A program made the translations under genes and the position numbers. The notes beneath the pieces are model-generated. The model was given only the letters and a program-made list of their open reading frames with translations. It searched no databases and was not told the DNA's origin. A stretch of DNA of 64,000 nt from an uncultured cyanobacterium. GTDB lineage: Bacteria > Cyanobacteriota > Cyanobacteriia > Cyanobacteriales > CAWCAG01. Within the stretch, counting starts at the first letter, position 1. Every line of letters begins with the position of its first letter. Below are positions 10,540 through 26,836 of the stretch, one piece after another. The stretch lies in NCBI GenBank assembly GCA_963793425.1, contig CAWCAG010000009.1, forward strand, positions 32,001 to 96,000, in the 5' to 3' direction.

Positions 10540-10544
10540 TAAAC

Positions 10545-11380
10545 GGTTCTACCGAACATAGGATGTAAGATTAGTAGTTGAAGTGCCAAGTCAAAATGCT
10601 CCTCAGAGAGAAGTTTTTAAAGTTCCTGAATCCGTAACCTCTCCTTTTAATCAACTTCAACTTGTTATTAATTCCTTCCACTACTCCTTGAGTTGTACGG
10701 GAGTCAAAGTAGGCTATAATCTCTCCCATCCAACGCCTTATTGTCCCACAACTTTTTGGGAAATACGAGTAAGCTTGAGCGCACCAATTAGCTATTTCTA
10801 ATAATCCTTCACTCCAGTCTTGGCTCTGTTCAAATATAGTTCTAAATTCCTCTTTTAATCTGTGCATTTTACCCAGAAGAGGTGAGACTTTATTGACTTG
10901 GTTCAATTTAATCTTTTGCTCTTCGCTCAAGTCTAATTCATTAAATTTCTTGCCACATTGCGAGCATCTCATTTGGCGATGATTAATTTTGAGATACACT
11001 GGTTGAGTTGCCCAAGGTAAATCTCTAATCGTTAGCTGATTATTCTGATGGAGTTTTTCAGTTATTGCACCGCAGTTAGTGCAGGTAGCTTTTTTCTCTA
11101 TTTTTTCTATGTGTAAGACTATGCCTATACTCTCTATACACTGATAATGTTTAACGGTAACTCCTTCTAATTGAAGTAAGTTTGTCATGAGGTTTAGTTG
11201 AGGATTCGATGGCATTTGTATAAGTTAAGTCTAAATAGTAGTTTTATTTTTACTATCATTTAATCTTTGAAAGAGCTATAATGCAAGCTGGATAAACTTT
11301 ATAGACATAAAACTATATATTTAAAGCCTGAGTATCTATTTTCTTGTTTTTTGCTTTCACATTGCAAGTTCGATAGAACC
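10545..11380 (-). mobile_element. ISL3-family insertion sequence, internally deleted (836 bp)
   Basis: Terminal inverted repeats GGTTCTACCGAAC (10545-10557) and GTTCGATAGAACC (11368-11380) enclose a transposase ORF. Confidence 0.85.
10571..11215 (-). pseudogene. ISL3 transposase with in-frame central deletion
   Basis: zf-ISL3 (CTNCG...IRDLPW...CSQCG) joined directly to the C-terminal part ([26 protein letters not shown]); 214 aa versus roughly 400 aa for intact ISL3 transposases. Confidence 0.8.
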
Positions 11381-11413
11381 AGAATTTTAGCTACGATCGC
11401 CAGTTTTAAATTT

Positions 11414-13099
11414 TTAGGTTTCTTTTTTCAATACAGATACTTCAAAGGGTTGTAAAGTTGAGGGCAGGTCTATAATTTTGTCAGCTCCCCAGACATTGGA
11501 AACCAGTACTTGCCAGCTTTCTCTAGGGATATATTCGTCTAATACTAAGTCCTTTTCATAGGCAAAATTGATGATGATTAAAACTTTTTCAGCTTGAGTT
11601 TCTCGAAGATAAGCTAAATGTTCATAAGGGTAATGAATTAAAGTTTTCCAGCTACCAACACGTAAAGCTTCGCTATTTTTTCTAGCTTTAATTAACTGTC
11701 GATAGAAATTTAAGATTGATTTCTGGTCTTTTAATTGTTTGGCAACATTAACTTCCTGGTAATTTTGATTTACTGGTAGCCAAGGTTCTGTATCTTTACC
11801 AAAGCTAAAACCAGCATTAACAGTATCATCCCATTGCATAGGAGTACGTCCCCCATCTCGTGGCGGTGGTAACTCTCCCGTTGCACTTTTAACTGTTGCA
11901 TGATCTTTCAGCTTTTCTGGAGGAATATCAAGATTATCAACCATGCCAATTTCTTGACCATAATAGACAACCGGAGTCCCTCTAACTGTTAACAAAATGG
12001 CTGCTGCTGCTTGGGCAATTCCTAATTCATTGCTACATAAACTACATTCATTCCAACGAGATAAATGTCTCGGAAGATCATGGTTATCTATAAAGTAAGT
12101 TGGCCATGCCCCTTGAGGTGTGATTAGCTCTTTTTTCGCAATTTCTCGCTGAAGATTTCCAGGATACCAGGGACTAAAAGGAAATTCAAAAGTAAATGCC
12201 AGATGTAATTCATCATTATTAACACCATAAAAAATAGTTGAGTCGTAGATCCTATTGTCAATAAAAGTTTCACCAATTAAAACTCGCTCATCATACTCAT
12301 CAATTATCTTTCTTATTGCTCTGATAATATAATGATTTTCAGGCAAATTCTTATCATATAAATGGCTTTGATTATGATAATTATTTTTATCAGTTGCACC
12401 AAATTTAACAGGATTAAAGCGATAGTATTCATCTTTGCTATAAACACTAGAAGCATCTAAACGAAAGCCATCAACCCCTTGATCTAACCAAAACCTAATT
12501 ACTTGGTAAACAGCTTCTTGAACTTCTGGGTTACGCCAGTTTAGATCCGGTTGAATAGTATTAAAAGTATGGTAATAATATTGTTGTCTGGTTTGATTAA
12601 AAGTCCAACCTGTTCCCCCAAAATAAGATAGCCAATTGTTAGGAACTCCGCCATCAGGACTAGGGTCTTGCCAATGATACCAGTCACTTTTAGGATTATC
12701 TTGGCTAGAACTAGATTCAAGGAACCAACTATGTTGATTAGAAGTATGATTAACTACTAAATCGAGAATTACTTTAATACCTCGTTTATGGGACTCTTTG
12801 ATGAGAGTTTCAAAATCTTTAAAATTACCAAATGTGTCGCTGATACCATAATAATCACTGATATCATAACCATTATCAATCATGGGGGATTCGTTAATCG
12901 GAGACAACCAAATAGCATCAACTCCTAAAGATGTTTCACTGTTAGGATTACCATCATTGAGATAGTCTAATTTATTAATGATTCCTGGTAAATCTCCAAT
13001 GCCATCGCCATTCCCATCAGCAAAGGTAAGGGGATATATTTGATAAATTACGCCAGTTTGCCACCATTTTGAAGAATCAGATTTTACATCTTGGGCCAT
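11414..13099 (-). CDS. GH13 alpha-glucosidase / oligo-1,6-glucosidase-like enzyme
   Basis: WWQTGVIYQIYP, DGNGDGIGDL, DLVVNHTS, GVDGFRLD, NHD motifs. Confidence 0.9.
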   Translation of the reverse strand: MAQDVKSDSSKWWQTGVIYQIYPLTFADGNGDGIGDLPGIINKLDYLNDGNPNSETSLGVDAIWLSPINESPMIDNGYDISDYYGISDTFGNFKDFETLIKESHKRGIKVILDLVVNHTSNQHSWFLESSSSQDNPKSDWYHWQDPSPDGGVPNNWLSYFGGTGWTFNQTRQQYYYHTFNTIQPDLNWRNPEVQEAVYQVIRFWLDQGVDGFRLDASSVYSKDEYYRFNPVKFGATDKNNYHNQSHLYDKNLPENHYIIRAIRKIIDEYDERVLIGETFIDNRIYDSTIFYGVNNDELHLAFTFEFPFSPWYPGNLQREIAKKELITPQGAWPTYFIDNHDLPRHLSRWNECSLCSNELGIAQAAAAILLTVRGTPVVYYGQEIGMVDNLDIPPEKLKDHATVKSATGELPPPRDGGRTPMQWDDTVNAGFSFGKDTEPWLPVNQNYQEVNVAKQLKDQKSILNFYRQLIKARKNSEALRVGSWKTLIHYPYEHLAYLRETQAEKVLIIINFAYEKDLVLDEYIPRESWQVLVSNVWGADKIIDLPSTLQPFEVSVLKKET

Positions 13100-13126
13100 A
13101 TTTCAATTATTTCCTGATAAATAAAT

Positions 13127-13765
13127 ATGATGAGTATCAGAACTAAGGTTGATCAAGAAGCTATTATAGCCACTTGGAGACAATCTCTAGGAAGACTACT
13201 ACATTTTTATGATCGCCGTCGAGGAAAATTGAAGCGATTTTTTCCTCGCCTCTTCATTTTCTTCGTATTCCTCAATATAACTTGTTATTGGTGGGCTATT
13301 GTTAGTGCTTATCCAGAAGCAGCTTTCGGTGAAGAGAAACTCCACTATTTTTTGATTCAGTTTCCTGTGGGTTTGTTGGGGGCTTTGTTTGATACCCTCT
13401 CTTTTTTTATCACTGTTTATATTGCGAAAAAAGCTTTAAAAACCACTTCAGTAACCAGTTATTTAGCCCATCTTAGTGTTGATATTATTATTGCCATTAT
13501 TGCCACTTGGTGGGTACTTTTTGTCTTTTCCTTTTCTGGTTGGTTAGTTAGTTTTGTGCAACACAACCCAGAATCTTTTACTCAACGCAGCTATGTTTAC
13601 GAACAAAGATTAACGGAGGCGATCACAAACCCTACCAACAAAGGAAGTCTCAAAAATATCTATTTTGGTTTTGTTGTGGGCATTTCTGCTATGCTACCGA
13701 CTTTTACTCATCTTTTCTTGTCGGTACGTGCTATAGCCAAAAATTTATTGACGAACAAAAATTAA
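13127..13765 (+). CDS. Hypothetical membrane protein
   Basis: 212-aa ORF with about four hydrophobic helices. Confidence 0.65.
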   Translation: MMSIRTKVDQEAIIATWRQSLGRLLHFYDRRRGKLKRFFPRLFIFFVFLNITCYWWAIVSAYPEAAFGEEKLHYFLIQFPVGLLGALFDTLSFFITVYIAKKALKTTSVTSYLAHLSVDIIIAIIATWWVLFVFSFSGWLVSFVQHNPESFTQRSYVYEQRLTEAITNPTNKGSLKNIYFGFVVGISAMLPTFTHLFLSVRAIAKNLLTNKN

Positions 13766-13907
13766 CAATATGTCGTCTTTTGTTAAATATGGTTCATACC
13801 TTGATAGGATAGTCTTAAAATAAACTAAAGATATGTAGACGGAACTAGGGAAATCGTGTTTATCCCACTCAGGATAGAGTTTTTTAAGAAATTACCTAAT
13901 AAAAAAA

Positions 13908-14354
13908 ATGACTGAAAGTAGTACTGCTGCCAAGAAAACCACTACTAAAGCCAAAACTACCCCCAGCCGTAGTAGTAGTGCGAGTAAAGAAAATGCTAAG
14001 GAGGAATTAGCTTTGGCTACGAAAGAAGAAACAAAAGAAACAAAACAACCCCTAGAGTTGGAAACCCAAGCCCCCACTGGCGCGATAGAATTGAGTCCAA
14101 AAATGACTTTGGTGGGCAATCGCCCTGTTGAAGCTAGTCATCTCGAATTATCAGACAACTTTGTTGCGGGAGGCCATATGCGTCCTGTGGTTAAAAGTGA
14201 TTTAGAGATTGTCGCTACAATGTCCTCTTCTGGCATTCGCCCAATCACTGCTAGTCATCTGAACATTAGCGAAACCTATAGAGTGATGGGAAATCGTCCT
14301 GTGGCTTCCAATGAAATTGATGATCCTACTACTTTAATGGGTTATTTGGATTAA
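13908..14354 (+). CDS. Hypothetical protein with four RP(V/I) motif repeats
   Basis: Low-complexity N-terminus; GNRPV, HMRPV, GIRPI, GNRPV at about 20-aa spacing. Confidence 0.65.
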   Translation: MTESSTAAKKTTTKAKTTPSRSSSASKENAKEELALATKEETKETKQPLELETQAPTGAIELSPKMTLVGNRPVEASHLELSDNFVAGGHMRPVVKSDLEIVATMSSSGIRPITASHLNISETYRVMGNRPVASNEIDDPTTLMGYLD

Positions 14355-14357
14355 GAT

Positions 14358-14392
14358 GCTAGTGGCTAGTGGCTAGTAGCTAACGGCTAGTT
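14358..14392. repeat. STRR-like heptamer tandem repeat (GCTAGTG)n
   Basis: gctagtg gctagtg gctagta gctaacg gctagtt; related heptamers near 25454, 26730, 39014, 43705. Confidence 0.6.
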
Positions 14393-14572
14393 GACAATTC
14401 TTTTTAAATAAAACCTGGCGATCGCCTAAACTTATAAGATTATAAGTAGCTGCGATCGCTATTTAATTGATAATTGTCTAATTTTGCTATTATCGTAGAC
14501 TAAAATTAATAACTGAATTATTGTTCGGCTTGCCCTTGCCGTTAGGCATCATTGATAACTGATAACTGATAA

Positions 14573-16894
14573 ATGAGTTTTCTTAGTAATCTTAATTCTT
14601 CTCAACGTAGTGCTGTAGAACATTATTGTGGCCCTTTGTTAGTTGTTGCGGGGGCGGGTTCAGGTAAAACTAGGGCTTTAACTTTTCGTATTGCTAACTT
14701 GATTGTTGAACATAAAGTTAATCCTGAAAACATTTTCGCCGTAACCTTTACCAATAAAGCGGCTAAGGAAATGAAGGAACGGATTGAGAAATTATTTGCT
14801 AATAAATTGGCAGAGGCTAAATATGGTCAACGTTTAGACTTGTTGCCTCCTCCTCAACAAACTCAATTGCGTTCCCAGGTTTATAAACAAACAATCAAAC
14901 CCCTTTGGATTGGAACTTTTCATAGTTTATTTGCACGAATTCTGCGTTTAGATATTAATAAGTATCAAGATGAATCAGGGCGACAGTGGCAGCGAAACTT
15001 TTCTATTTTTGATGAATCTGATGCTCAAAGTTTGGTAAAAAATATTGTCACTAAACAGTTAAATTTAGATGATAAAAAGTTTAATTTTCGTTCTGTACGT
15101 TATGCCATTAGTAATGCGAAAAATCAGGGTTTATCTCCCCAGGATTTCTTGAAAGAACAACCTAATTATCGCGGCAGAGTAATTAGTGAAGTATATAACG
15201 AATATATTAATCAACTAGCAGCTAATAATGCCCTGGATTTCGATGATTTAATCTTAGTTCCCTTAAGAATTTTCCAACAAAACGAAACAGTATTAGGCTA
15301 TTGGCATCGGCAGTTTCGTCATATCTTAGTAGATGAATATCAAGATACTAATCGCATTCAATATGAATTAATTCGTCTTTTAAGTACTAATGGTGAAACC
15401 AACAAAGCTAGTTGGGATTGGCGCGATCGCTCGGTTTTTGTCGTAGGAGATGCTGACCAATCTATTTATAGTTTTCGCATGGCAGACTATAAAATCTTAT
15501 TGGAGTTTCAAGAAAACTTTGGTGATGGTTTGCCTGATGATGATACGAGAACAATGGTTAAATTAGAAGAAAACTATCGTTCTAGGGAAAATATTCTCGA
15601 AGCTGCCAACCAACTTATTAATAATAATACTCAACGTATTGAAAAAGTTCTTAAACCTACAAGAGGTTCAGGGGAACCAATCTATCTTTACAAAGCAGAT
15701 GATGAAATAAGAGAAGCAAAATTTGTTGTTAATAAAATTCGTTATTTAGCCCAAGAAAACCCAGAAATAGATTGGGGCAGCTTTGCGATTTTATATCGTA
15801 CTAATGCTCAATCTCGTGCTTTTGAAGAAGTATTGCGGGGGCAAATTCCTTACTTAATTGTGGGGGGTTTAAAGTTTTATGATCGTAAAGAAATTAAAGA
15901 CGCTTTAGCTTATTTAAGGGCGATCGCTAATCCAGCCGATACCGTGAGTATTTTAAGGGTAATCAATACTCCCCGGCGGGGCATTGGTAAAGCGACCATC
16001 GAATCCCTTTTAGGGGCTTCTCAAGAATTAGGTATTCCCTTATGGGAAATTCTTAAAGATGAAACTTCTGTTAACACCATGGTAGGGCGCAAAGCTAAAG
16101 CGGTTAACAAGTTTACGGAGGTAATTAAGAAGTATCAAGAACAAATTAACAACCTCAGCGCCACGGAAATTATTCAAGGAGTGATGGAAGATTCTGATTA
16201 TGTTGATGATTTGAAAAGTAAGGGAACCGATGAAGATGCTAACCGCCTAGAAAACGTCTACGAATTATATAACGCGGTGGCACAGTTTCAAGAAGAATAT
16301 GAAGATAAGAGTTTACAAGGTTTTTTGGCAAATGCTTCTTTAGCGTCAGATTTAGATAATTTAGAAGATGGGCAAAAAGCGGTTTCTTTAATGACGTTGC
16401 ATTCTGCCAAAGGGTTAGAGTTTCCCATTGTGTTTATGGTGGGTTTAGAACAAGGATTATTTCCCAATATCAGAAGTTTAAATGACCCCACTTCTTTAGA
16501 AGAAGAACGTCGTTTATGTTATGTGGGCATTACCCGCGCCCAAGAACAGTTATTTATTAGCCACGCTAGGGAACGTCGTCTTTGGGGGGCAAGGGATGTG
16601 GCGATACCTTCACAGTTTTTACAAGAAATTCCTCGCGATTTGGTTGATAGCAAGGTGACGAAAAGTTTTAGTACAAGTTTGCGACGTAAGAAGGCTAAAA
16701 CTGAGGCGAATGAAGTTAGTAATGGGGTTAAGTATAGTTGGGAAAAAGGTGATTTGGTGTTACATAAAACCTTTGGAGAAGGAGAAGTTACCCATGTTTT
16801 TGGGGAAGGAAACAAGATGAATTTAGCGATTAAGTTTCCTGGTTTAGGTCAGAAGATTATTGACCCGAAGATTGCTTCTTTGGAAAAGTTGTGA
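14573..16894 (+). CDS. pcrA: ATP-dependent DNA helicase PcrA/UvrD
   Basis: VVAGAGSGKT, VDEYQDTN, VGDADQSIY, LEENYRS, TLHSAKGLEF, EERRLCYVGITRA motifs; C-terminal Tudor-like domain. Confidence 0.95.
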   Translation: MSFLSNLNSSQRSAVEHYCGPLLVVAGAGSGKTRALTFRIANLIVEHKVNPENIFAVTFTNKAAKEMKERIEKLFANKLAEAKYGQRLDLLPPPQQTQLRSQVYKQTIKPLWIGTFHSLFARILRLDINKYQDESGRQWQRNFSIFDESDAQSLVKNIVTKQLNLDDKKFNFRSVRYAISNAKNQGLSPQDFLKEQPNYRGRVISEVYNEYINQLAANNALDFDDLILVPLRIFQQNETVLGYWHRQFRHILVDEYQDTNRIQYELIRLLSTNGETNKASWDWRDRSVFVVGDADQSIYSFRMADYKILLEFQENFGDGLPDDDTRTMVKLEENYRSRENILEAANQLINNNTQRIEKVLKPTRGSGEPIYLYKADDEIREAKFVVNKIRYLAQENPEIDWGSFAILYRTNAQSRAFEEVLRGQIPYLIVGGLKFYDRKEIKDALAYLRAIANPADTVSILRVINTPRRGIGKATIESLLGASQELGIPLWEILKDETSVNTMVGRKAKAVNKFTEVIKKYQEQINNLSATEIIQGVMEDSDYVDDLKSKGTDEDANRLENVYELYNAVAQFQEEYEDKSLQGFLANASLASDLDNLEDGQKAVSLMTLHSAKGLEFPIVFMVGLEQGLFPNIRSLNDPTSLEEERRLCYVGITRAQEQLFISHARERRLWGARDVAIPSQFLQEIPRDLVDSKVTKSFSTSLRRKKAKTEANEVSNGVKYSWEKGDLVLHKTFGEGEVTHVFGEGNKMNLAIKFPGLGQKIIDPKIASLEKL

Positions 16895-16918
16895 TAGTAA
16901 GCTCAAAAGTTACATAAA

Positions 16919-18936
16919 TCTGTGGGTAGAGTTAGTTCTATTGGGGGACTAAGCCCCCCAAACCCGCATCTCAGGGAAACAAGTGTTTCCCCACACCCCT
17001 TCCTAACCGCTTCGCTCTTGGTTGGTTATGTTTGGCTGGCTAATTCCTGGTTGCTTTATCGTCGGAGATAGGCCTGGTGGTAGGGTGCATTGGGATTTAG
17101 GCTCGTTCCTTCTTTTGATTAGTCTGTGGGTAGAGTTAGTTTTATTGGGGGATTGACCCCCCAAACCCGCATCTCAGGGAAACAAGTGTTTCCCCACACC
17201 CCTTCCTAACCGCTTCGCTCTTGGTTGGTTGTGTTTGGCTGGCTCATTCTCGGTTGCTTTATCGTCGGAGATAGGCCTGGTGGTAGGGTGCATTGGGATT
17301 TAGGCTCGTTCCTTCTTTTGATTAGTCTGTGAGTAGCGTTAGTTTTATTGGGGGACTAAGCCCCCCAAACCCGCCCAGCAGGGAAACAAGTGTTTCCCCA
17401 CACCCCTTCCTAACCGCTTCGCTCTTGGTTGGTTATGTTTAGTTGGCTAATTCCTGGTTGCTTTTTCGTCGGAGATAGGCCTGGTGGTAGGGTGCATTGG
17501 GATTTAGGCTCGTTCCTTCTTTTGATTAGTCTGTGGGTAGAGTTAGTTTTATTGGGGGACTGACCCCCCAAACCCGCATCTCAGGGAAACAAGTGTTTCC
17601 CCACACCCCTTCCTAACCGCTTCGCTCTTGGTTGGTTATGTTTGGCTGGCTAATTCCTGGTTGCTTTATCGTCGGAAATAGGCCTGGTGGTAGGGTGCAT
17701 TGGGATTTAGGCTCGTTCCTTCTTTTGATTAGTCTGTGAGTAGCGTTAGTTTTATTGGGGGACTAAGCCCCCCAAACCCGCCCCTCAGGGAAACAAGTGT
17801 TTCCCCACACCCCTTCCTAACCGCTTCGCTCTTGGTTGGTTATGTTTAGTTGGCTAATTCCTGGTTGCTTTTTCGTCGGAGATAGGCCTGGTGGTAGGGT
17901 GCATTGGGATTTAGGCTCGTTCCTTCTTTTGATTAGTCTGTGGGTAGAGTTAGTTTTATTGGGGGATTGACCCCCCAAACCCGCATCTCAGGGAAACAAG
18001 TGTTTCCCCACACCCCTTCCTAACCGCTTCGCTCTTGGTTGGTTATGTTTAGTTGGCTCATTCTCGGTTGCTTTATCGTCGGAGATAGGCCTGGTGGTAG
18101 GGTGCATTGGGATTTAGGCTCGTTCCTTCTTTTGATTAGTCTGTGAGTAGCGTTAGTTTTATTGGGGGATTGACCCCCCAAACCCGCATCTCAGGGAAAC
18201 AAGTGTTTCCCCACACCCCTTCCTAACCGCTTCGCTCTTGGTTGGTTATGTTTAGTTGGCTAATTCCTGGTTGCTTTATCGTCGGAAATAGGCCTGGTGG
18301 TAGGGTGCATTGGGATTTAGGCTCGTTCCTTCTTTTGATTAGTCTGTGGGTAGCGTTAGTTTTATTGGGGGATTGACCCCCCAAACCCGCATCTCAGGGA
18401 AACAAGTGTTTCCCCACACCCCTTCCTAACCGCTTCGCTCTTGGTTGGTTATGTTTAGTTGGCTCATTCCTGGTTGCTTTATCGTCGGAAATGGGCCTGG
18501 TGGTAGGGTGCATTGGGATTTAGGCTCGTTCCTTCTTTTGATTAGTCTGTGGGTAGAGTTAGTTTTATTGGGGGATTGACCCCCCAAACCCGCATCTCAG
18601 GGAAACAAGTGTTTCCCCACACCCCTTCCTAACCGCTTCGCTCTTGGTTGGTTGTGTTTGGCTGGCTCATTCTCGGTTGCTTTATCGTCGGAAATGGGAC
18701 TGGTGGTAGGGTGCATTGGGATTTAGGCTCGTTCCTTCTTTTGATTAGTCTGTGAGTAGCGTTAGTTTTATTGGGGGACTAACCCCCCAAACCCGCATCT
18801 CAGGGAAACAAGTGTTTCCCCACACCCCTTCCTAACCGCTTCGCTCTTGGTTGGTTGTGTTTGGCTGGCTCATTCTCGGTTGCTCTGTCGTCGGAGATAG
18901 GCCTGGTGGTAGGGCGCATTGGGATTTAGGCTCGTT
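16919..18936. repeat. Non-coding tandem array of ten 203-204-bp hairpin-containing units
   Basis: Unit starts (TCTGTG) at 16919, 17123, 17326, 17530, 17733, 17937, 18140, 18343, 18546, 18749; last unit truncated at about 18936; no ORF in the track. Confidence 0.97.
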
Positions 18937-19022
18937 TTTGAAATCGATGATAATCAGTACTCTTGTTTTACTATATTTTTCCTGATTTCGGTATTTCCGC
19001 AAAACTGAAATGCTTCCTCTCC

Positions 19023-21552
19023 CTACTTCCTCATCTCTTCCTGGAGATAAGCAAGATTATTCCGAATAGTTACTGTGTTGGGGTGGTTGCTGCCTAAAAC
19101 TTGTTCGCATAACTCCAAAGCTTGTTGATATAGAGGTTCTGCTTCTGTATACTTTCCTTGTGATTTGTAGAGTCCTGCCAGGTTGTTGAGACTCGATGCT
19201 ACATCAGGATGTTCTTCTCCTAAAAGGCGTTTTCTTAGCTCCAAAGCTTGTTTGATATAAAGGTTCTGCTTCTGTATACCTTCCTTGGGATTCGTAGAGT
19301 GATGCCAGGTTGTTGAGACTCGATGCTACATCAGGATGTTCTTCTCCTAAAAGGCGTTTTCTTAGCTCCAAAGCTTGTTTGTATAAAGGTTCTGCCTCTG
19401 TATACCTTCCTTGGGATTTGTAGAGTAATGCCAGGTTGTTGAGACTGGTTGCAATAGAAGGATGTTCTTCTCCTAAAAGGCGTTTTCTTAGCTCCAAAGC
19501 TTGTTGATATAAAGGTTCTGCTTCTGTATACCTTCCTTGGGATTCGTAGAGTGCTGCCAGGTTGTTGAGACTGGATGCTACATCAGGATGTTCTTCTCCT
19601 AAAAGGCGTTTTCTTAACTCCAAAGCTTGTTGATATAAAGGTTCTGCCTCTGTATACCTTCCTTGGGATTTGTAGAGTCCTGCCAGGTTGTTGAGACTGG
19701 TTGCTACATCAGGATGTTCTTCTCCTAAAAGGCGTTTTCATAACTCCAAAGCTTGTTGATATAAAGGTTCTGCTTCTGTATACCTTCCTTGGGATTTGTA
19801 GAGTCCTGCCAGGTTGTTGAGACTGGTTGCTACATCAGGATGTTCTTCTCCTAAAAGGCGTTTTCTTAACTCCAAAGCTTGTTGATATAAAGGTTCTGCT
19901 TCTGTATACCTTCCTTGGGAATAGTAGAGTCATGCCAGGTTGTTGAGACTGGTTGCTACATCAGGATGTTCTTCTCCTAAAAGGCGTTTTCTTAACTCCA
20001 AAGCTTGTTGATATAAAGGTTCTGCCTCTGTATACCTTCCTTGGGATTCGTAGAGTGATGCCAGGTTATTGAGACTGGATGCTACATCAGGATGTTCTTC
20101 TCCTAAAAGGCGTTTTCATAACTCCAAAGCTTGTTGATATAGAGGTTCTGCCTCTGTATACCTTCCTTGGGATTCGTAGAGTTCTGCCAGGTTGTTGAGA
20201 CTCGATGCTACATGAGGATGTTCTTCTCCTAAGCGAGTTTCTACTTCTACCCAACACTGGTTTAAATAAGGTTCTGCTAATTTGTATAACCCCTGTCCTT
20301 TATAAAACCAAGCTAAACCAAGGAAAGACCAAATCAAGTCTTCATCATCGGCTACAACATCAAGATGCTTTGACGGTACTTCTTTGAGGTGAGGAATAGC
20401 TGCTTTTACCCTTTGAATATCTTTTAGAGTAGGTGTTTGAGGAATCGTCTTAGCAATAGCCACCATCGCCTCAGCAAAAGCCGTTGCAAACGCCTCTTTC
20501 TGCACCGAGGCTGCTAACTTTTCTTGGCAAAATACCCGAATCAAAGCATGAACTTTGTAACCGTTTTCTTTCTCATCAAACTGAATTAAATGCCGTTGAT
20601 AAAGTTGCCTTTTCCCCTGATTCAAACTCCCTTTACTCCAACTAAGATGACTTTCCGCCGCTTCCTTCACCAACTCCCAAGGTAACAAAGCCGGGGCAAA
20701 CAGCCCCATAAACATAGCCAAATCCTTCGCTTCTGTGTCCAGCTTTGCCCAACTCAACTCAAAAGCTGCCCTAACCCCTCTTTCTGCCGTACCATTAATG
20801 CTGCGATCTACTGCCTCGCAACCCAAACCCTCCTCTTGCAGCAATTCCCCCATCTCCTGCAAGCTCAAGCTGGGATCTTCCCTTAAATACCAACCCACCA
20901 ACTCAATACCCAAAGGTAAATAACCCAACCAAGCTAACAACTCCCTCGCCGTAGCAGCTTCTTGTGTAACTCGCTGTTTCCCCAACAGCTTAATCAATAA
21001 CTCCTCTGCCTTCTCCAGGGACAACACATTTAAAGGCATCTCCGTAAAACTGGGGCTGAGGTTACGCACTCTTGTAGTTAAAAGGAGAGAAAACCTCTTA
21101 TTTTGGGGTAAAACTTCCTGTAACTTCGTCTCCTTCCCCACATCATCCACCACTAGCAAAACCTTTCCCTGTTCGGGTTGCCAATGCTGCCAACACCACC
21201 TCACCTGCTGCAAAATATCGAGGGGTTGCCCCTGAGAGTTTTTTTGCGGAATCTCCAAACCCAGATTAAGCTGAATAAACTCTACCACCGCCGTAGCCAA
21301 GTCATTCACCCGCACATCAAACCAACAAACTCCCCCACCATAAACATCCTGATATCTCTTTACATATTGCGTCGCCAACTCCGTCTTGCCCACACCACCC
21401 ATTCCTGCCACCGCAGAAATAGCTATACCTTCTCCTTGGCATAACTTTGTGTGGAGTGTCTCCAACTCCTTCTCCCGTCCCACAAAATACTTTGAACCAG
21501 AATATTTAAGAGATTGTAATGGCTTTGAGTCCTGTTCCCCAGGCGAGTTCAG
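19023..21552 (-). pseudogene. NB-ARC (STAND) ATPase + TPR repeats, NLR-like; interrupted as assembled
   Basis: FVGRE, Walker A GMGGVGKT, Walker [31 protein letters not shown]s; in-frame TGA at 20116, 19930 and 19738 and a 1-nt insertion near 19251. Confidence 0.85.
19115..20232 (-). repeat. Nine near-identical 126-bp (42-aa) TPR-coding repeats
   Basis: AGGATGTTCTTCTCCTAA marker at 19206, 19333, 19459, 19585, 19711, 19837, 19963, 20089, 20215 (spacing 126, once 127). Confidence 0.95.
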
Positions 21553-22023
21553 TCAATAGTTATTATTGTTAACAGTAAAGCTACCAGGGCCAGAATTATT
21601 ATACTGCCCACCTTCAATCTTTTGCTGATAAACCCCAATACTTTCTGCTAACTTAGGGCGATTTTCCTTTGCCGCTTGTGCCTGTAATCTTTTGTTTAAA
21701 ACACCCAACTGCTTTTTAAAAACCTGATTTTCTTGCGCTGCCTCTTTTACCCGTTGCCCTAAAATCTCTAACTCTTGGCGCAACTCCCCATCAGACTCAA
21801 CCTCCTTTGCCACAGCCTCCAAAACCGCCACCCCAATATCTTCAGGATCTTCTACTGCTGCTTCCAACGCCTTAAACTTTTCCGGAGATTTACCAACCAA
21901 CAAACTCTTAACCTTGCTTCCCTGTTGCCAAGCTGCCTCAACAACCTTTTCTCCTGCTTTCTCCAGAGTTTTATTACCAAGCAAAACTCCCAAGGCAATT
22001 AATGTAGGAATAATTGGTTCCAT
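21553..22023 (-). CDS. Small helical Bell-like domain protein with C-terminal N/Q/G-rich amyloid-like tail; in frame with the downstream NB-ARC-TPR
   Basis: Hydrophobic N-terminal helix (MEPIIPTLIALGVLLGNKTLEKAGEK), helical body, tail IGVYQQKIEGGQYNNSGPGSFTVNNNNY; family call is by resemblance only. Confidence 0.6.
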   Translation of the reverse strand: MEPIIPTLIALGVLLGNKTLEKAGEKVVEAAWQQGSKVKSLLVGKSPEKFKALEAAVEDPEDIGVAVLEAVAKEVESDGELRQELEILGQRVKEAAQENQVFKKQLGVLNKRLQAQAAKENRPKLAESIGVYQQKIEGGQYNNSGPGSFTVNNNNY

Positions 22024-22092
22024 TATTCTGTCATAGTTAAAACTGTTGTTGCTATTATAGCTTGAGAGATTTTTTGTTAGTCACAGATAAAT

Positions 22093-22135
22093 GATCCTCC
22101 CAAGTCCCCCTTCCCAAGGGGGATTTAGGGGGATC
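22093..22135. repeat. Cyanobacterial palindromic short repeat / possible terminator after gnd
   Basis: GATCCTCCCAAGTCCCCCTT-CCC-AAGGGGGATTTAGGGGGATC imperfect palindrome. Confidence 0.6.
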
Positions 22136-22160
22136 ATCAAACTAAATCAACTAAAAAAAC

Positions 22161-23585
22161 CTAAGCTTGTTCCATCCACTCTGTATGAGTAAACTCACCT
22201 CTGGGCTTGTCGATTCTTTCGTAGGTATGGGCCCCGAAATAATCCCGTTGTGCCTGAGTTAAGTTTTGGGGTAAACTGCCACGACGATAGCTATCGAAGT
22301 AATCCAACGAAGCACTAAAAGCAGGAACAGCAATACCTGAACTATTGGCAGTAGCAAGGACTTCCCGCCATGCCTCTTGGCGATCTAGGATACTTTGCTT
22401 AAACTCTGGGGCCAAGAGTAGGTTAGGTAAAAGAGGATTGTCTCGGAAAGCCTCCTTAATCTTATCCAAGAAACTAGCCCGAATAATACAACCTCCTTTC
22501 CAAATACGAGAAGTTTCGCTTAAATTGAGGTTATAGTTAAACTCGCTAGATGCCTTACTTAACAAAGCCATGCCTTGGGCATAGGAACACATTTTAGAAC
22601 AGTAAAGGGCATCCCGAATCTTATTAACAAAAGCTTTCTTGTCTCCTTCAAACTTACCCATCGGGCCAGTCAAAACCTTAGAAGCAGCCACCCTTTCATC
22701 TTTGTAAGCAGACATAACGCGGGCATTAACTGCTGCATAGATAGTGGGTATAGGTACGCCTAATTCCAAAGAACTAACCACAGTCCAACGTCCAGTACCC
22801 TTTTGCCCAGCAGCATCAAGAATTAATTCTACCAGAGGGCCTTTAGTTTCTGGATCAATATACTTAAAGATGTCGGCGGTAATCTCAATCAAGAAAGAAT
22901 TGAGTTCATCTGTAGTATTCCACTCAGCAAACACTTCATGTAACTCAGTATGGCTTAAGCCTAAAGCATTTTTCATTAAATCATAGGCTTCAGCAATAAG
23001 CTGCATATCTCCATACTCAATGCCATTGTGAACCATTTTCACATAATGACCCGCACCTCCAGGGCCGATAAAAGTCACACAAGGACCATCATCCACTTGG
23101 GCAGCAATTTTGGTTAAAATGGGTTCCAACTTTTGGTAAGCTGCTTCTGTCCCTCCTGGCATCAAACTAGGGCCATTAAGGGCCCCTTCTTCGCCGCCAC
23201 TAACACCCATACCCATATAACCTAGTCCCGTAGCTTCTAGTTCTTGGGTACGTCTTTCGGTATCATTATAAAGAGAGTTACCGCCATCGATAATCATATC
23301 TCCTTCTTCTAGCAAAGGCTTAAGCTGTCCAATAACTGCATCCACAGGTTTACCAGCTTTAACCATTACTAGGATTTGGCGGGGACGTTCTAGACTTTCG
23401 ACAAATTCCTCCAAAGAATAGGCTGCTTTCACGTCCTTATCTTGGGCGCGGTTGGCCATAAAATCCTTCGTTTTCGTGGGAGTTCGGTTATAAACTGCGA
23501 TGGGAAAACCGCGACTTTCTACATTAAGGGCCAAATTTTCCCCCATTACCGCTAAGCCAATTACGCCGAAATTTCTTTTACTCAT
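22161..23585 (-). CDS. gnd: 6-phosphogluconate dehydrogenase (NADP-dependent, decarboxylating)
   Basis: GVIGLAVMGENLALN, VKMVHNGIEYGDMQ, QAQRDYFGAHTY; ATG at 23585 preferred over the upstream TTG. Confidence 0.97.
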   Translation of the reverse strand: MSKRNFGVIGLAVMGENLALNVESRGFPIAVYNRTPTKTKDFMANRAQDKDVKAAYSLEEFVESLERPRQILVMVKAGKPVDAVIGQLKPLLEEGDMIIDGGNSLYNDTERRTQELEATGLGYMGMGVSGGEEGALNGPSLMPGGTEAAYQKLEPILTKIAAQVDDGPCVTFIGPGGAGHYVKMVHNGIEYGDMQLIAEAYDLMKNALGLSHTELHEVFAEWNTTDELNSFLIEITADIFKYIDPETKGPLVELILDAAGQKGTGRWTVVSSLELGVPIPTIYAAVNARVMSAYKDERVAASKVLTGPMGKFEGDKKAFVNKIRDALYCSKMCSYAQGMALLSKASSEFNYNLNLSETSRIWKGGCIIRASFLDKIKEAFRDNPLLPNLLLAPEFKQSILDRQEAWREVLATANSSGIAVPAFSASLDYFDSYRRGSLPQNLTQAQRDYFGAHTYERIDKPRGEFTHTEWMEQA

Positions 23586-23733
23586 AAAACTCTTTGCCAA
23601 TTCTAATATCTATCCCGCGTGGGGGTAAGCTACACTCTCAACAGTAGCCCGATCTTCTTGATTCATGGCTAAAGAAGAGATTAAGAGTTTTGTCTTTTGT
23701 TAAAAGTAGCTGACTATTTTCAATGAACAGTTA

Positions 23734-24297
23734 TCAATAATCAATGATCAGTGGGGGAGTGTTAGGCGGTTTTAGTTGGAAGAGTGAACATTTGATGCCG
23801 TAGTATTTATCTGTTGTCCCCAGGGGGAGCATTTTTAGACGTTCCATGACGCGAATTGAACGCTTATTTTCTGCCCTGGTGATCGCATAAATTACCGGCA
23901 AATTTAAACTATCAAAGCCATACTCAAGAATCTTTTTTGCCCCCTCTGTGGCATAACCTTGACCCCAACTTCTACGCCGCAAATGCCAGCCAATTTCAAC
24001 ATCTTGAGTTAATTTTCCTTCCGCATCAGGTAATTGCTTGAGAATAATTGCCCCAATAAGCTGTCCTGTGGCTTTTTCTACAGCAGCCCAATAACCAGTG
24101 CCATTGTTAAGGGCATCGTAACGGTCTACATTTAATTGCAGGCGATCGCGTACACTAGTAATGCTTTTTTCAACTTTACCATCACCGATATAACGCATTA
24201 CTTCACGATCACCATAAATCTCCCAAGCGGCTTGGGCATCTTGTTGAGGTTGCCAAGGGCGGAGTAATAAGCGTTGGGTGATAAACTCCTTATTCAT
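23734..24297 (-). CDS. GNAT N-acetyltransferase (RimJ/RimL type)
   Basis: TQRLLLRPW, EIGWHL...WGQGYATEGA, N..SIRVMERL. Confidence 0.85.
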   Translation of the reverse strand: MNKEFITQRLLLRPWQPQQDAQAAWEIYGDREVMRYIGDGKVEKSITSVRDRLQLNVDRYDALNNGTGYWAAVEKATGQLIGAIILKQLPDAEGKLTQDVEIGWHLRRRSWGQGYATEGAKKILEYGFDSLNLPVIYAITRAENKRSIRVMERLKMLPLGTTDKYYGIKCSLFQLKPPNTPPLIIDY

Positions 24298-24495
24298 CGC
24301 CGTTAATTTATCTCTTCCTTTTGATTTTATGCTCTGAAGGTAACTTCTTTCTTAAGGAAGTGTTAACCTCAAAGCTTATTTACTTAGCATATTACTAAAC
24401 TTCTGTTTCGTTCTTGCCGGCAAATACAGACCGAAAGAGAGTAAGTTGAACCTAAATATAAATTTACCCAATCTCTGAGCGAAGAAAGTAGTAAT

Positions 24496-25452
24496 ATGAG
24501 TCGTACAGCCTGCTTGATTTTTAATCCTGTTGCTGGACAAGGGGATGCTGACCAAGATTTAGAAAAAATCAAGACCCTTCTTGACCCCAAAATTGATCTT
24601 GATATTAAGCTAACAACCAAAGAGGTTGATGCAGGTCAACTGGCACGAGAGGCCGTAGCAAGGGGGGTTGAAGCTGTTATCGCTTCGGGGGGAGATGGTA
24701 CTCTTTCTGCGGCGGCCGAAGCTTTAGTAGAAACGGATATTCCTTTGGGAATAATTTCTAGGGGGACGGCCAATGCTTTCGCCTCAGCTTTAGGAATTCC
24801 TGATGTCATTGAAGAAGCTTGTCAAATGATTCTTGATGGCAAAACTAGAGTTGTAGATGCGGCTGTGTGCAACGACAAGCCCATGGTACTTTTAGCCGGG
24901 ATCGGTTTTGAAGCAGAAACGGTTAAAGATACCTCTCGCGCCTCCAAAAATCGTTGGGGAATGCTAGCTTATGTTCTCGCTGGCATCAAGCAACTGGCAG
25001 ATTTAGAAGCTTTTGAAGCTACCATTGAAACAGAAGATAAAATTATTGAAGTTACTGCCACAGCCATAACCGTTGCTAATGCTGCCCCCCCTTCATCAGT
25101 TTTAGCCCAAGGGCCAGCAGGTATTATTGTTGATGATGGCTTGCTTGATTTAACCTTAGTAGCCCCTAATAGTCGGGCTGGGGCTGTGGCAGCTTCTTAT
25201 CATTTATTACAAACTGCTTTTAGTAACGAAGCAGCAGAAAGAGATGATATTGGTTATCTACGGGCTAAAGAAATCAAAGTTACTACTAATCCTCCTCAGC
25301 AAGTGGTTCTGGATGGAGAATTAATTGGTAAAACTCCTGTTAGTATTAAATGTATTCCCCAATGCTTGACTATTTTTGTTCCCATGACGAAAGCAGAAAG
25401 GCCAGCAGAAAAGTTGGCAGGACTACCGGAGTTAAAGGTTGAGGATAAGTGA
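24496..25452 (+). CDS. YegS/DAGK-family lipid kinase
   Basis: IFNPVAG, SGGDGT, RGTANAFA, GIGFEA, LDGE motifs. Confidence 0.9.
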   Translation: MSRTACLIFNPVAGQGDADQDLEKIKTLLDPKIDLDIKLTTKEVDAGQLAREAVARGVEAVIASGGDGTLSAAAEALVETDIPLGIISRGTANAFASALGIPDVIEEACQMILDGKTRVVDAAVCNDKPMVLLAGIGFEAETVKDTSRASKNRWGMLAYVLAGIKQLADLEAFEATIETEDKIIEVTATAITVANAAPPSSVLAQGPAGIIVDDGLLDLTLVAPNSRAGAVAASYHLLQTAFSNEAAERDDIGYLRAKEIKVTTNPPQQVVLDGELIGKTPVSIKCIPQCLTIFVPMTKAERPAEKLAGLPELKVEDK

Positions 25453-25499
25453 TTGCTAGTTGCTAATTGCCAACTCCGTTCCCTGTTTTCACGACTAAC

Positions 25500-26177
25500 T
25501 TAAACAGACATTTGGGTTATGGCGATATTTCCTGAGAAGCAAATATCTACATCTGAACCAGAGGTGCGATCGCGTTTTTCATAAACACCTTCGTATTGAT
25601 AGGAGTTTCCCTCAACTCGATATTGTAATGGCAACGGTTCTTTACTTTGAGGGCAAAAGACAATTTTGGGATCAGGGGAACCAGATTCTAAATGAGGTAA
25701 GTTAACATTCCAAAAACTTCCAGGGGGTAAGGGGCGAGGAAATAAATCTGCTAATACTTTTTTAGTCCAGTAAGTAGCCCAATCCCAATCAATTATTAAA
25801 GGTCTTTTGATCCAATGGGAAACAGCTATTCCCGAAATACCTTGCATCGCAGCTTCTCTGACAGCAGCCACAGTTCCAGAAATATAAGCATCGGTTCCTA
25901 AGTTGCCCCCAGCATTAATACCAGAAAGAAGCCAATCTATTTCTCTACATAAATGGCTAACTGCGAGGCGGCTACAATCGGCCGGAGTGCCGCCGATAGC
26001 ATACTCAGTTTCTGTACGTTGCACCACTGGAATTGGTCTGTCGGTAGTAACTTGGTGGCTGCAACCAGAGTGATGTTCTTTGGGGGCAACAATTATGCCT
26101 TTTCCTTCTACGGCCCCTTGTAAAGCTTGTATACCAGGGGCATCAATACCGTCATCATTGGTTAAAACTAAGATCAT
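25500..26177 (-). CDS. surE: 5'/3'-nucleotidase SurE
   Basis: LTNDDGIDAPG, GTPADC, SGINAGGNLG, SGTVAA. Confidence 0.92.
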   Translation of the reverse strand: MILVLTNDDGIDAPGIQALQGAVEGKGIIVAPKEHHSGCSHQVTTDRPIPVVQRTETEYAIGGTPADCSRLAVSHLCREIDWLLSGINAGGNLGTDAYISGTVAAVREAAMQGISGIAVSHWIKRPLIIDWDWATYWTKKVLADLFPRPLPPGSFWNVNLPHLESGSPDPKIVFCPQSKEPLPLQYRVEGNSYQYEGVYEKRDRTSGSDVDICFSGNIAITQMSV

Positions 26178-26244
26178 TTACCATTTATCTTTTAGCCGTC
26201 TTACTTATTGTCTGCGATCGCCTGAGCTTTTTCGACTAATAAAT

Positions 26245-26538
26245 CTAATGACTACGGAAATATTGATAGCGATAGAAGGTATAAAGATTAAACAAACCTC
26301 CTACCAAACTACAGGCTAAGGCAATTGTCAATATTCCCTGTAAAGGGCAACCGTTGCCGAAGGTAGCCAGAAATTTAAAAACCGTACTTAGGAAAATCTG
26401 ACCAAAAACAGCTAAGCCCGGTATATAGATAGCTATAACGGGAACCACCAGTATCGCGCCTACTACAACCATTGGCGCTAAAAAACTGAAAATGGTAGTT
26501 AGTAGTAAAGAAAATAAGAAATTAGGCAAACTGCTCAT
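26245..26538 (-). CDS. Small conserved hypothetical membrane protein
   Basis: Hydrophobic 97-aa ORF with FLATFGNG motif. Confidence 0.6.
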   Translation of the reverse strand: MSSLPNFLFSLLLTTIFSFLAPMVVVGAILVVPVIAIYIPGLAVFGQIFLSTVFKFLATFGNGCPLQGILTIALACSLVGGLFNLYTFYRYQYFRSH

Positions 26539-26728
26539 AGGGAAGCTAGTAATTTAGTAACTGAAGCAGGATAATGATACGAAAATAAATTTTACTATCC
26601 TGCGCCTTCTTTCCAGTATTAGAGGAGAAAAACCGATTTTTCCGGAAATGTTTTATTTCTTAAATGTTCATTAACAATCTTGGTGAACATCCGTAAATTT
26701 CTTCTCATAAATCAGGACGGGGAGAAAA

Positions 26729-26798
26729 CTATTAGCAACTAGCAACTAGCCATTAGCCATAACCAGGCTGTACCTCACGCTTACCAGAAATTGCTATA
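26729..26798 (+). mobile_element. Partial copy (one arm) of the TATAGC...GAGGTACA MITE family
   Basis: AGGCTGTACCTCACGCTTACCAGAAATTGCTATA closely matches the reverse complement of 43649-43682; preceded by heptamer repeats. Confidence 0.6.
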
Positions 26799-26836
26799 TA
26801 TATCTAATTAACTTAACTTAACTTTTGTTTGCATGG

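Follow-up and report, generated by a model that had tools for sequence, protein, structure and literature searches.

A gap of about 2 kb between two convergent genes of an uncultured cyanobacterium is filled with ten head-to-tail copies of a hairpin-bearing unit, and the question raised by this locus is whether the units are RNA genes, protein-binding DNA, or the remains of a mobile element. The initial annotation of the window (the whole stretch of 64,000 nucleotides that was analyzed) had left the choice between a multimeric structured ncRNA, possibly tied to the neighboring NLR-like TPR gene, and a tandemly amplified small mobile element or protein-binding DNA array. The features at issue, in window coordinates, are as follows.

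14573 to 16894, plus strand: pcrA/UvrD-type helicase gene, with its stop 24 nt ahead of the array
16919 to 18936, plus strand: tandem array of ten units, the first nine full (203-204 bp) and the last 188 bp
17123 to 17325, plus strand: unit 2, as an example; its first 188 nt are the core common to all dispersed copies
17145 to 17164, plus strand: hairpin 1 of unit 2, TTGGGGG-loop-CCCCCAA, with the stem in 10/10 units and a variable loop
17175 to 17230, plus strand: 56-nt invariant block (unit 2 copy), the same in 10/10 units
17177 to 17194, plus strand: hairpin 2 of unit 2, GGGAAAC-AAGT-GTTTCCC, the same sequence in 10/10 units
18937 to 18997, plus strand: decayed right arm of a full-length element, after the last unit, aligning to the right arm of that element
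19023 to 21552, minus strand: NB-ARC + TPR gene, convergent with pcrA

The ten head-to-tail units were borne out by Tandem Repeats Finder, which returned a period of 203 (9.9 copies, 95% matches, 0% indels) together with a higher-order period of 407 bp (5.0 copies, 96%). Units start at positions 16919, 17123, 17326, 17530, 17733, 17937, 18140, 18343, 18546, and 18749, and their lengths are, in order, 204, 203, 204, 203, 204, 203, 203, 203, 203, and 188 nt. The alternation between 203 and 204 described earlier holds for the first six units and is absent from the last four. Pairwise identity among the units ranges from 91% to 99%, no two of them are identical, and variants common to several units are distributed in a mosaic pattern, with 22 of 189 alignment columns variable. 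Being head-to-tail, of high identity, and periodic at a higher order, the array is a satellite, or long-unit tandem repeat. No variable column falls inside the 56-nt core, which had been read as identical throughout and of which we counted ten exact occurrences; an invariant run of this length has P = 0.005 (200000 random placements). The core covers most of the best-conserved 20-mer of the repeat family, TTCCTAACCGCTTCGCTCTT. Both hairpins are present in each unit as described, and the loop of hairpin 1 takes four forms (ACTAAGC in three units, ATTGAC in five, ACTGAC and ACTAAC in one each). Four G-runs were observed on the minus strand of every unit. The longest ORF within the array is just 56 aa, in line with its non-coding description, and a reading as a coding repeat was dropped on this basis.

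The array lies 24 nt from the pcrA stop and 86 nt from the stop of the last frame of the TPR gene (19023), close to the ~25 and ~87 bp given in the initial annotation. Three in-frame TGA codons and a single frameshift break the NB-ARC/TPR gene, and the frameshift is probably an assembly error. We found no cas genes among the 14 ORFs screened, from 8113 to 27763; the statement that neither cas nor transposase genes are adjacent therefore stands for cas, while it has to be amended by a truncated ISL3 transposase ORF at 10571-11215, 5.7 kb upstream of the array. No connection between this ORF and the repeat was found. The units abut directly, with none of the unique spacers whose absence had already been noted, and a CRISPR array was dropped for this reason and for want of a cas gene among the screened ORFs. 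A CRISPR-like or guide-RNA array with 16-nt guides was likewise dropped, given that the 15-16-nt linker is uniform and comes from a larger element: these last 15-16 nt of the unit (CCTTCTTTTGATTAG) derive from the left arm of the full-length element described below.

The unit is not confined to the window. A total of 31 matches were found in the same genome, of which ten are the window units, four belong to an array of period 311, eight to an array of period 152, and nine are solo copies or fragments; these represent 12 loci of the unit family, and three isolated end fragments occur besides. Dispersed monomers and arrays, which had been posed as alternatives to be checked, thus coexist in one genome. 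Among 41 related genomes, two carry the unit, this one and one congener (13 matches), and the ~190-bp core of the unit is a dispersed family limited to this genus among the genomes searched. An exact scan of a species-representative genome collection, which excludes the genome under study, for the conserved 21-mer of the family returned two chance matches (a Dehalococcoidia MAG and Haloarcula), and a 22-mer of the family had no matches in a metagenome scan.

Alignments of 9 and 19 copies with their flanks showed that full-length solo copies are ~350 bp long and that those retaining both ends are bounded by imperfect terminal inverted repeats of ~33-36 bp, while many dispersed copies are truncated. 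These copies thus have the small size, absence of coding capacity, inverted ends, and multiple dispersed loci in two genomes by which a MITE is recognized. Next to full-length copies there is no consistent direct repeat from which a target-site duplication could be defined, with TA or TTA adjoining the ends in some. Allowing ≤3 mismatches, the end sequence was present in 5 of the 301 genomes of the order that were scanned, and in three other genera (genomes G191, G076, and G200) it bounds elements of ~95-180 bp with other interiors. A shorter end pattern had 435 matches in G076, 21 in G191, 13 in the congener (G001), and 3 in G200. Ends shared with an autonomous insertion sequence were not found in the three places searched: a blast of the end sequence gave no autonomous partner in the same genome; the best plasmid match, 87% over 38 nt on a Chondrocystis plasmid, has no transposase within 2.5 kb; and four loci fetched from the end-rich G076 gave none either, with seven ORFs from two of them lacking a transposase domain. 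Because full-length copies with inverted ends are dispersed and the same ends bound other elements, we take the unit to be the core of a MITE-like non-autonomous element, which favors the tandemly amplified mobile element among the options first proposed.

The remaining arrays suggest how such an element became a satellite. In the same genome (G000, array C1) and in the congener (G001, array C2), whole elements follow one another head to tail, right end against left end, at periods of 311 bp and 306 bp, respectively; the two arrays are not syntenic with each other. The 203-bp window unit and the 152-bp unit of the third array both correspond to this end-to-end repeat with the junction and both ends removed. 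The decayed right arm that follows the last window unit closes with what is left of the right terminal inverted repeat (18984-18997). We therefore consider the array, with a probability of about 0.7, to be satellite-like DNA that arose from a non-autonomous, MITE-like transposable element. The element would once have been moved by a transposase not encoded in this genome but supplied in trans, and this enzyme would have made, or allowed, end-to-end multimers in the manner of copy-out-paste-in insertion sequences. A deletion across one junction would then have left a shorter, immobile repeat, and unequal recombination or replication slippage could have expanded it to ten copies while shuffling variants between units, which would explain both the mosaic and the 407-bp super-period. 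Most likely, the array has persisted because it is tolerated in the gap between two convergent genes. Between the two species, arrays are non-syntenic and the pcrA locus differs, and a clean empty site was not reconstructed.

One observation hints at constraint or function: the 56-nt invariant block is unlike what random decay would predict (P = 0.005).

The interior of the element has a wider distribution than its ends. Both hairpins are part of a module of ~83 nt that was found in 13 of the 80 cyanobacterial genera sampled, inside elements with different ends. Its layout comprises an invariant G5/C5 hairpin, a C-run, a covarying second hairpin, another C-run, and a tail pairing with the second-hairpin loop. 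Across genera, the stem pairs of hairpin 1 are nearly invariant, while hairpin 2 has changes on both sides in 8 of 10 pairs. In 72 distinct sequences, 89.7% of cells in the module pair, compared to 78.8% in shuffles (0/500 reach the observed value); for the loop-to-tail helix alone the values are 77.4% and 68.0% (0/500), falling to at most 42.2% when slid. The window units and the other copies of the genus do not have the loop-to-tail complementarity. Covariation is weak within the genus and supports hairpin 2 and the loop-to-tail helix in the wider module, a signal that ssDNA or paired protein half-sites would give equally. In 51 of 53 module instances the better fold is that of the G-rich strand, a bias for which composition alone can account. 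A viral-contig scan for the module had no matches, and literature searches with the hairpin-1 string and the C-run and G-run strings returned nothing relevant. Module-bearing elements are also arrayed in other genera (365 bp, 4.1 copies, in G132; 211 bp, 1.9 copies, in G334), so array formation may belong to the element itself and need not be accidental. The module is conserved across genera with compensatory changes, whereas MITE interiors can ordinarily drift. It is conceivable, though we consider it unlikely, that the module is an undescribed structured nucleic-acid element carried by differently ended MITE families across much of Cyanobacteria, and that it may act as RNA or ssDNA in element propagation. 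Such a role may include end-to-end multimer formation or the processing of multimeric transcripts and, if true, would account for the tandem arrays of module-bearing elements in at least three genera.

The same module speaks for an alternative in which the array would encode a structured ncRNA in multiple gene copies, with mobility secondary; a multimer, transcribed by putative read-through from pcrA or from an unrecognized promoter, would be cut into monomers of ~200 nt. The array does begin shortly past the pcrA stop on the same strand, its hairpins belong to a module with cross-genus covariation and a loop-to-tail helix that pairs above shuffles, the 56-nt block is invariant in every unit, and in tandem-gene contexts elsewhere the module is found 18 times in sense and 7 times in antisense orientation (rough ORF calls, related loci included). 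Against this, the loop-to-tail pairing is lost in the copies of this genus, and covariation among 21 copies of the genus is weak: the RNAalifold covariation term is only -1.05, and compensatory changes were seen in 3 of 33 pairs. Single-unit folds were no better than shuffles (z = +0.28 and -0.60). We found no promoter-like and no terminator-like sites in the array. The Rfam search proposed for the unit gave no family match either: in Rfam 15 the best hit was Hrs13 at 17.4 bits (gathering score 52, E = 0.73), and a full-length copy plus four module loci of other genera had no matches at E ≤ 0.1. Many dispersed copies are truncated, the pcrA locus of the congener has no array, and the three arrays (311, 203, and 152 bp) keep different parts of the element, all of which make an RNA gene an improbable account of the array.

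The more specific proposal of an ncRNA linked to the NLR-TPR gene did not survive comparison of loci. A look for recurring neighbor genes had been proposed, and the neighbors at the 14 loci are mutually unrelated, with gltB, glyS, argS, ackA/xfp, and others of housekeeping type. The 13 loci outside the window all differ from it in this respect. TPR proteins adjoin 4 of the 14 loci, beside these other genes, and TPR genes are common in cyanobacteria. In the congener, similarity stops at the pcrA stop, and neither an array nor an NB-ARC gene is present in the next 4.5 kb. The tie to the NB-ARC/TPR gene was dropped accordingly.

We consider it still less probable that the array acts as DNA, through phased protein-binding sites or unusual DNA structures, for example as a putative insulator or barrier separating pcrA from the NB-ARC gene convergent with it. 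The sequence of hairpin 1, loop included, is nearly invariant in many genera of the order, which suits a protein site more than an RNA stem; each unit offers its four minus-strand G-runs; and 10 of the 14 loci sit between convergent genes. Among the window units, however, the hairpin-1 loop differs in length as well as in sequence, a variation that would not be expected of a strict binding site. The loci have no candidate binding protein linked to them, there is no terminator-like site, and the array is not kept in the congener.

The weakest alternative is that the array or its copy number is an artifact of long-read metagenome assembly. The stretch is present in four runs, all DNA, of one sediment-metagenome study, and short-read contigs from these runs cover both array edges (run X1 contigs 16400-16968 and 18855-19134, with 0 differences from the assembly). 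The array is not bridged by any short-read contig, and its interior is covered in patches, so the count of ten units is that of the assembly. At least one likely indel error lies nearby, where one base at 19251 is absent from the short-read contigs of all four runs. An artifact is nonetheless very improbable, given that unit-specific variant stretches match contigs exactly (for example, 17818-17917 and 18652-18729 in run X2), that all ten units differ from each other, that the edges agree without differences, and that the family forms two more arrays in this genome and another in the separately assembled congener.

If the satellite origin from a MITE-like element is correct, this array near an NLR-like gene is mobile-element DNA, and annotating it as an RNA gene or as a component of a defense locus would be misplaced. 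In bacterial genomes, it is rare for the origin of a long-unit satellite to be traceable step by step. Here, a single genus would show every stage, from the whole element through the end-to-end multimer and the junction-deleted repeat to the amplified array, making it a clean prokaryotic case of the passage from MITE to satellite. The interior module is better conserved across genera than the element ends, which is the reverse of what is expected of a MITE. With compensatory changes and no Rfam counterpart, the module is a candidate new structured RNA or ssDNA motif in cyanobacteria.

Several known systems share parts of this picture. NsiR1-type tandem sRNA arrays of cyanobacteria carry a promoter and a terminator in each unit and occupy a conserved locus. 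The array resembles them in its head-to-tail, non-coding, intergenic units in a filamentous-type cyanobacterium, but its family is dispersed with inverted ends, and we found no promoter/terminator pattern or Rfam match. To our knowledge, arrays of ~200-bp units of MITE origin have rarely been reported in bacteria. Nezha is described as a MITE of Anabaena/Nostoc of ~130-170 bp (PMC3184786). Compared by description only, both elements are small, non-coding, multi-copy, and intergenic, have terminal inverted repeats, and occur in few related genomes; the present one differs in its length of ~350 bp and its long-unit tandem arrays, and no target-site duplication or matching insertion sequence was found for it. 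The small dispersed repeats of Nostoc treated by Elhai et al. 2008 (as cited in PMC3116915) may include related tiny elements. BOX elements of Streptococcus pneumoniae, as described in PMC3184786, are modular intergenic repeats with a tandem middle part and predicted hairpins. The array is likewise intergenic, tandemly repeated, and hairpin-bearing, whereas BOX modules are short and have no link to inverted-repeat ends of this kind, and sequence and host are unrelated.

Other parallels come from elements in which mobility and tandem repetition meet. BrickBuilt of Porphyromonas gingivalis is an intact MITE whose interior holds a minisatellite of 23-nt units (PMC4596501). It too combines a MITE with a tandem repeat, is always intergenic in that account, and has several forms per genome, but the unit here spans almost the full element, at 203 bp (311 bp when the ends are included), and the inverted ends are gone from the window array. 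The IS30, IS3, IS21, and IS256 families are known to form end-joined dimers and minicircle junctions (PMC9333248, PMC3299598). The left and right ends that abut in the 311-bp and 306-bp arrays resemble these copy-out-paste-in dimers, and we infer a transposase origin for the end-to-end junctions of the element. Unlike the dimers described there, those of this element are stable, occur in multiple copies (3-4), and have been partly deleted, and no transposase is known for the element. DTC84 of the clam Donax trunculus offers an example of a tandem-repeat MITE or MITE-derived satellite (PMC3879986). As in such satellites, the interior of a mobile element has apparently given rise to tandem arrays able to outlive its mobility; those described there are eukaryotic, whereas the array reported here is bacterial.

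Features of the window discussed here:
10571-11215, minus strand: truncated ISL3-family transposase ORF (214 aa; zinc ribbon and end of the DDE domain)
14573-16894, plus strand: pcrA
16919-18936: non-coding array of ten ~203-bp units
18937-18997: weak alignment to the right arm of the full-length element, including a right inverted-repeat remnant
19023-21552, minus strand: NB-ARC/TPR gene, convergent with pcrA (the NLR-like gene of the initial annotation)
19110-20232: coding tandem repeat of 126 bp (42 aa), 8.9 copies at 94%, making up the TPR portion of the NB-ARC gene

The array starts 24 nt past the pcrA stop, and 86 nt separate its end from the last-frame stop of the TPR gene. Tandem Repeats Finder confirmed the head-to-tail organization, with a period of 203, 9.9 copies, 95% matches, and no indels, and reported a second period of 407 bp (5.0 copies, 96%). 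Split at the unit start, the units begin at 16919, 17123, 17326, 17530, 17733, 17937, 18140, 18343, 18546, and 18749, with lengths of 204, 203, 204, 203, 204, 203, 203, 203, and 203, and a final 188 nt. No two units are identical (pairwise identity 91%-99%), and variants are common to non-adjacent units in a mosaic pattern. Across units, 22 of 189 aligned columns are variable, none of them inside the 56-nt core, which occurs exactly ten times, as claimed; an invariant run of at least 56 columns arose in 0.5% of 200,000 random placements. Both hairpin stems are whole in all units, variation within the hairpins is confined to the hairpin-1 loop, and the longest ORF inside the array is 56 aa, in keeping with a non-coding repeat. 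At both edges there is coverage by short-read contigs of four DNA runs, all from one study; those of one run, X1, cover 16400-16968 and 18855-19134 with 0 differences. No contig from the four runs crosses the whole array, and the count of ten comes from the assembly. With the hairpins, 56-nt core, position, and edge contigs checked, the array observation stands with two small corrections. The reported 203/204 alternation holds for the first six units and not for the remainder, and the statement that no transposase gene is adjacent must allow for the truncated ISL3 ORF 5.7 kb upstream, whose sequence resembles the array's element only in a chance match of 12 nt. The two hairpins of each unit belong to an ~83-nt stretch, hereafter the module. 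Its minus strand (e.g., at 17145-17205) has four G-runs, each three to six nt long, spaced by short loops and the hairpin-2 sequence, and could in principle form a G-quadruplex.

A search of this genome (G000; 5.28 Mb, 9 contigs, with the window at C9:32001-96000) with a single unit returned 31 matches, and the unit is present in 2 of 41 related genomes, counting this one, the other being a congener (G001, 13 matches). By these sequence matches, the unit is a dispersed element and not a local invention, and the family is not confined to the window locus. Matches outside the window end at unit position 188 or before, so the last 15-16 nt of the window units lie outside the common core of ~190 bp.

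Matches to one unit in this genome
Window array: 10 matches
Array on contig C1: 4 matches; period 311, 3.8 copies, 96%
Array on contig C7: 8 matches; period 152, 7.9 copies, 99%
Solo copies or fragments: 9 matches

Element anatomy was derived from alignments of solo copies and their flanks, with 9 copies and then 19 from both species. Similarity continues well past the core on both sides, and copies retaining both ends carry imperfect inverted repeats of ~33-36 bp, giving a complete element of ~350 bp. Many copies are truncated or lack one end, and isolated end fragments are also present. In the window units, the 15-16-nt "linker" corresponds to the inner portion of the full element's left arm. 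In one solo copy (G000:C1:334600-334700), a run of GGGAATA heptamers, a kind of short tandem repeat frequent in cyanobacteria, replaces the outer left inverted repeat. No target-site duplication could be defined among the 19 aligned copies. Of 301 genomes from the order, 5 contain the end sequence when up to 3 mismatches are allowed, and in G191, G076, and G200 such ends flank elements of ~95-180 bp with interiors that bear no relation to the core. A shorter end pattern gave 435 matches in G076, 21 in G191, 13 in the congener, and 3 in G200, with almost no matches to the reversed pattern used as a control. The inverted ends thus behave as a transposon-end family, and the 435 matches indicate a large burst of related short elements in G076. 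That genome belongs to another family of the order; its matches comprise 225 forward and 210 reverse, and many are within ~200 nt of contig starts. In size, non-coding content, inverted ends, and copy number, the element conforms to a MITE. A matching autonomous insertion sequence has not been found so far: no transposase gene was seen between these ends in this genome, beside the best plasmid match, or at four G076 loci, two of which were screened for ORFs.

The arrays themselves suggest how a dispersed element may have become a satellite. In the C1 array and in that of the congener (period 306, 2.9 copies, 95%), the units are whole elements arranged head-to-tail, with the right inverted repeat directly abutting the left. 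Only the repeats align between these two arrays, so their sites are non-syntenic, and at the junction both show one and the same altered form of the right end, from which the end-to-end multimer seems to be an old form of the element, itself moved or inherited. The first multimer may have been made by a transposase; end-joined dimers and circle junctions are normal copy-out-paste-in intermediates of the IS30, IS3, IS21, and IS256 families (PMC9333248, PMC3299598). The 203-bp window unit corresponds to the multimer repeat minus ~110 bp around the junction, with both inverted repeats gone, while in the 152-bp C7 unit the deletion is larger, falls on the 3' side, and is bounded by a pair of short similar stretches. 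Later expansion would have proceeded by unequal recombination or slippage, which fits the 407-bp super-period and the mosaic variants.

The initial annotation had also raised a possible functional tie to the NB-ARC/TPR gene. Counting fragments, 14 loci were compared; the flanking genes are convergent at 10 of them, tandem at 2, and divergent at 2. Their neighbours include glutamate synthase with an MmeI-type enzyme, glyS, argS, acetate kinase with phosphoketolase, a BFA1-like protein, a response-regulator kinase, XisI, and others, and 4 of the 14 adjoin TPR proteins. Similarity to the congener stops at the pcrA stop (window 16895 onward against L095, the corresponding locus on G001:C11), and the 4.5 kb after the congener's pcrA contain neither the array nor the NB-ARC gene. 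The varied neighbours and this absence argue against the tie. Downstream of pcrA is a variable spot between the congeners, here holding the array, the NB-ARC/TPR gene, and a 156-aa ORF. The 126-bp coding repeat lies directly beside the non-coding array, and the gene has three in-frame TGA codons in the assembly, two of them AGA-to-TGA changes that share one position within the 42-aa repeat, and a third replacing a variable residue. It also has one frameshift, an extra A near 19251, which is probably an assembly error because the base is absent from the contigs of all four runs.

Dispersed ~350-bp copies with inverted ends, together with whole-element multimers, favour the proposal of a tandemly amplified small mobile element. 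The most probable reading, which we put at roughly 70%, is that the array is satellite DNA descended from a MITE, lacking a dedicated function and unconnected with the NLR-like gene. A role as a transcribed, structured RNA is unlikely, given the tests on the unit. At a permissive threshold, Rfam returned only Hrs13, at chance level (17.4 bits, where the gathering score is 52; E=0.73), and one full-length copy and four module loci of other genera gave no match at E<=0.1. Within the array, 0 sigma-70-like promoters and 0 terminator-like sites were found (1.6 and 6.1 in shuffles), and a single unit did not fold better than shuffles on either strand (z +0.28 and -0.60). For 21 copies from two species, RNAalifold gave -19.8 kcal/mol with a covariation term of only -1.05, compensatory changes in 3 of 33 pairs, and a consensus from which hairpin 2 is absent. 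Covariation, weak within the genus, does appear in the module across genera.

Searched against 301 genomes of the order, a solo copy matched 31 genomes in 20 of 119 genera, this genome counted, with matches outside the genus limited to query ~14-79, the two-hairpin region. The module begins with a G5/C5-6 hairpin that hardly varies within the order, followed by three purine-rich bases, a C-run, a second hairpin varying in sequence between genera, a second C-run, and a short tail. In a first set of 18 sequences from nine or more genera, 6 of 10 hairpin-2 pairs were changed on both sides, 85.9% of cells were paired against 75.5% in shuffles (0/500 reached this), and the covariation score was 0.262 against 0.104 shuffled and at most 0.123 with partners slid. 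The covariance model R1, built from this set, detected the module in 13 genomes out of a phylum-wide sample of 151 (13 of 80 genera, this genome counted), with as many as 25-26 copies in single genomes among the 30 candidates scored in each; a metagenome scan added 31 loci. In a larger set of 85 matches (72 distinct), 8 of 10 hairpin-2 pairs were changed on both sides, 89.7% of cells paired against 78.8% shuffled (0/500), and covariation was 0.216 against 0.072 shuffled and at most 0.060 slid; the sequences are related, many come from few genomes, and the shuffle counts are not probabilities. The hairpin 2 loop is complementary to the module tail: this helix alone paired in 77.4% of cells against 68.0% shuffled (0/500) and at most 42.2% slid, and one of its pairs alternates between A-U (22), G-C (16), and U-A (2). 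The complementarity is not kept in copies of this genus, window units included, and in other genera the module is found with inverted ends unlike those of the window element. The same pairing pattern would be expected of single-stranded DNA or of paired half-sites for a protein. Folding is better on the G-rich strand in 51 of 53 module instances, a preference that base composition by itself could account for, so either strand may be the relevant one. A DNA-level role for the array is more doubtful still than one in RNA. Least credible is an artefact, since short-read contigs match both edges and, exactly, several unit-specific stretches.

The module is the part of the array most worth following up. 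Gene contexts of 49 module loci are tabulated below. At L089 (G097) and L092 (G016), hairpin 2 is missing exactly between the two C-runs, reflecting either a tiny nested insertion with C-run duplication or loss by recombination between the C-runs. Elements carrying the module are also arrayed in tandem in G132 (365 bp, 4.1 copies, 99%) and G334 (L103; 211 bp, 1.9 copies, 97%); each 365-bp unit of the former (L126, G132:C1:3870400-3875600) holds (TCAGTTA)n heptamer runs. Sequence-string searches of the literature found no paper on the module. Elhai et al. reportedly described very small mobile repeats of Nostoc in 2008, which could bear on it.

Gene contexts of 49 module loci (rough ORF calls, related loci included)
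Tandem genes, module sense: 18 loci
Tandem genes, module antisense: 7 loci
Between convergent genes: 10 loci
Between divergent genes: 2 loci
Inside an ORF: 6 loci
Context incomplete: 6 loci

Partial parallels exist among known systems. The Nezha-type cyanobacterial MITEs (PMC3184786) were compared by their published description. Others are a Porphyromonas gingivalis MITE with an internal 23-nt minisatellite (PMC4596501), tandem-repeat MITEs of a clam that seed satellites (PMC3879986), and BOX elements with a tandem middle module (PMC3184786). Unlike in these systems, the ~200-300-bp repeated unit here is the element itself, and the steps from multimer to satellite are all preserved within one genus.
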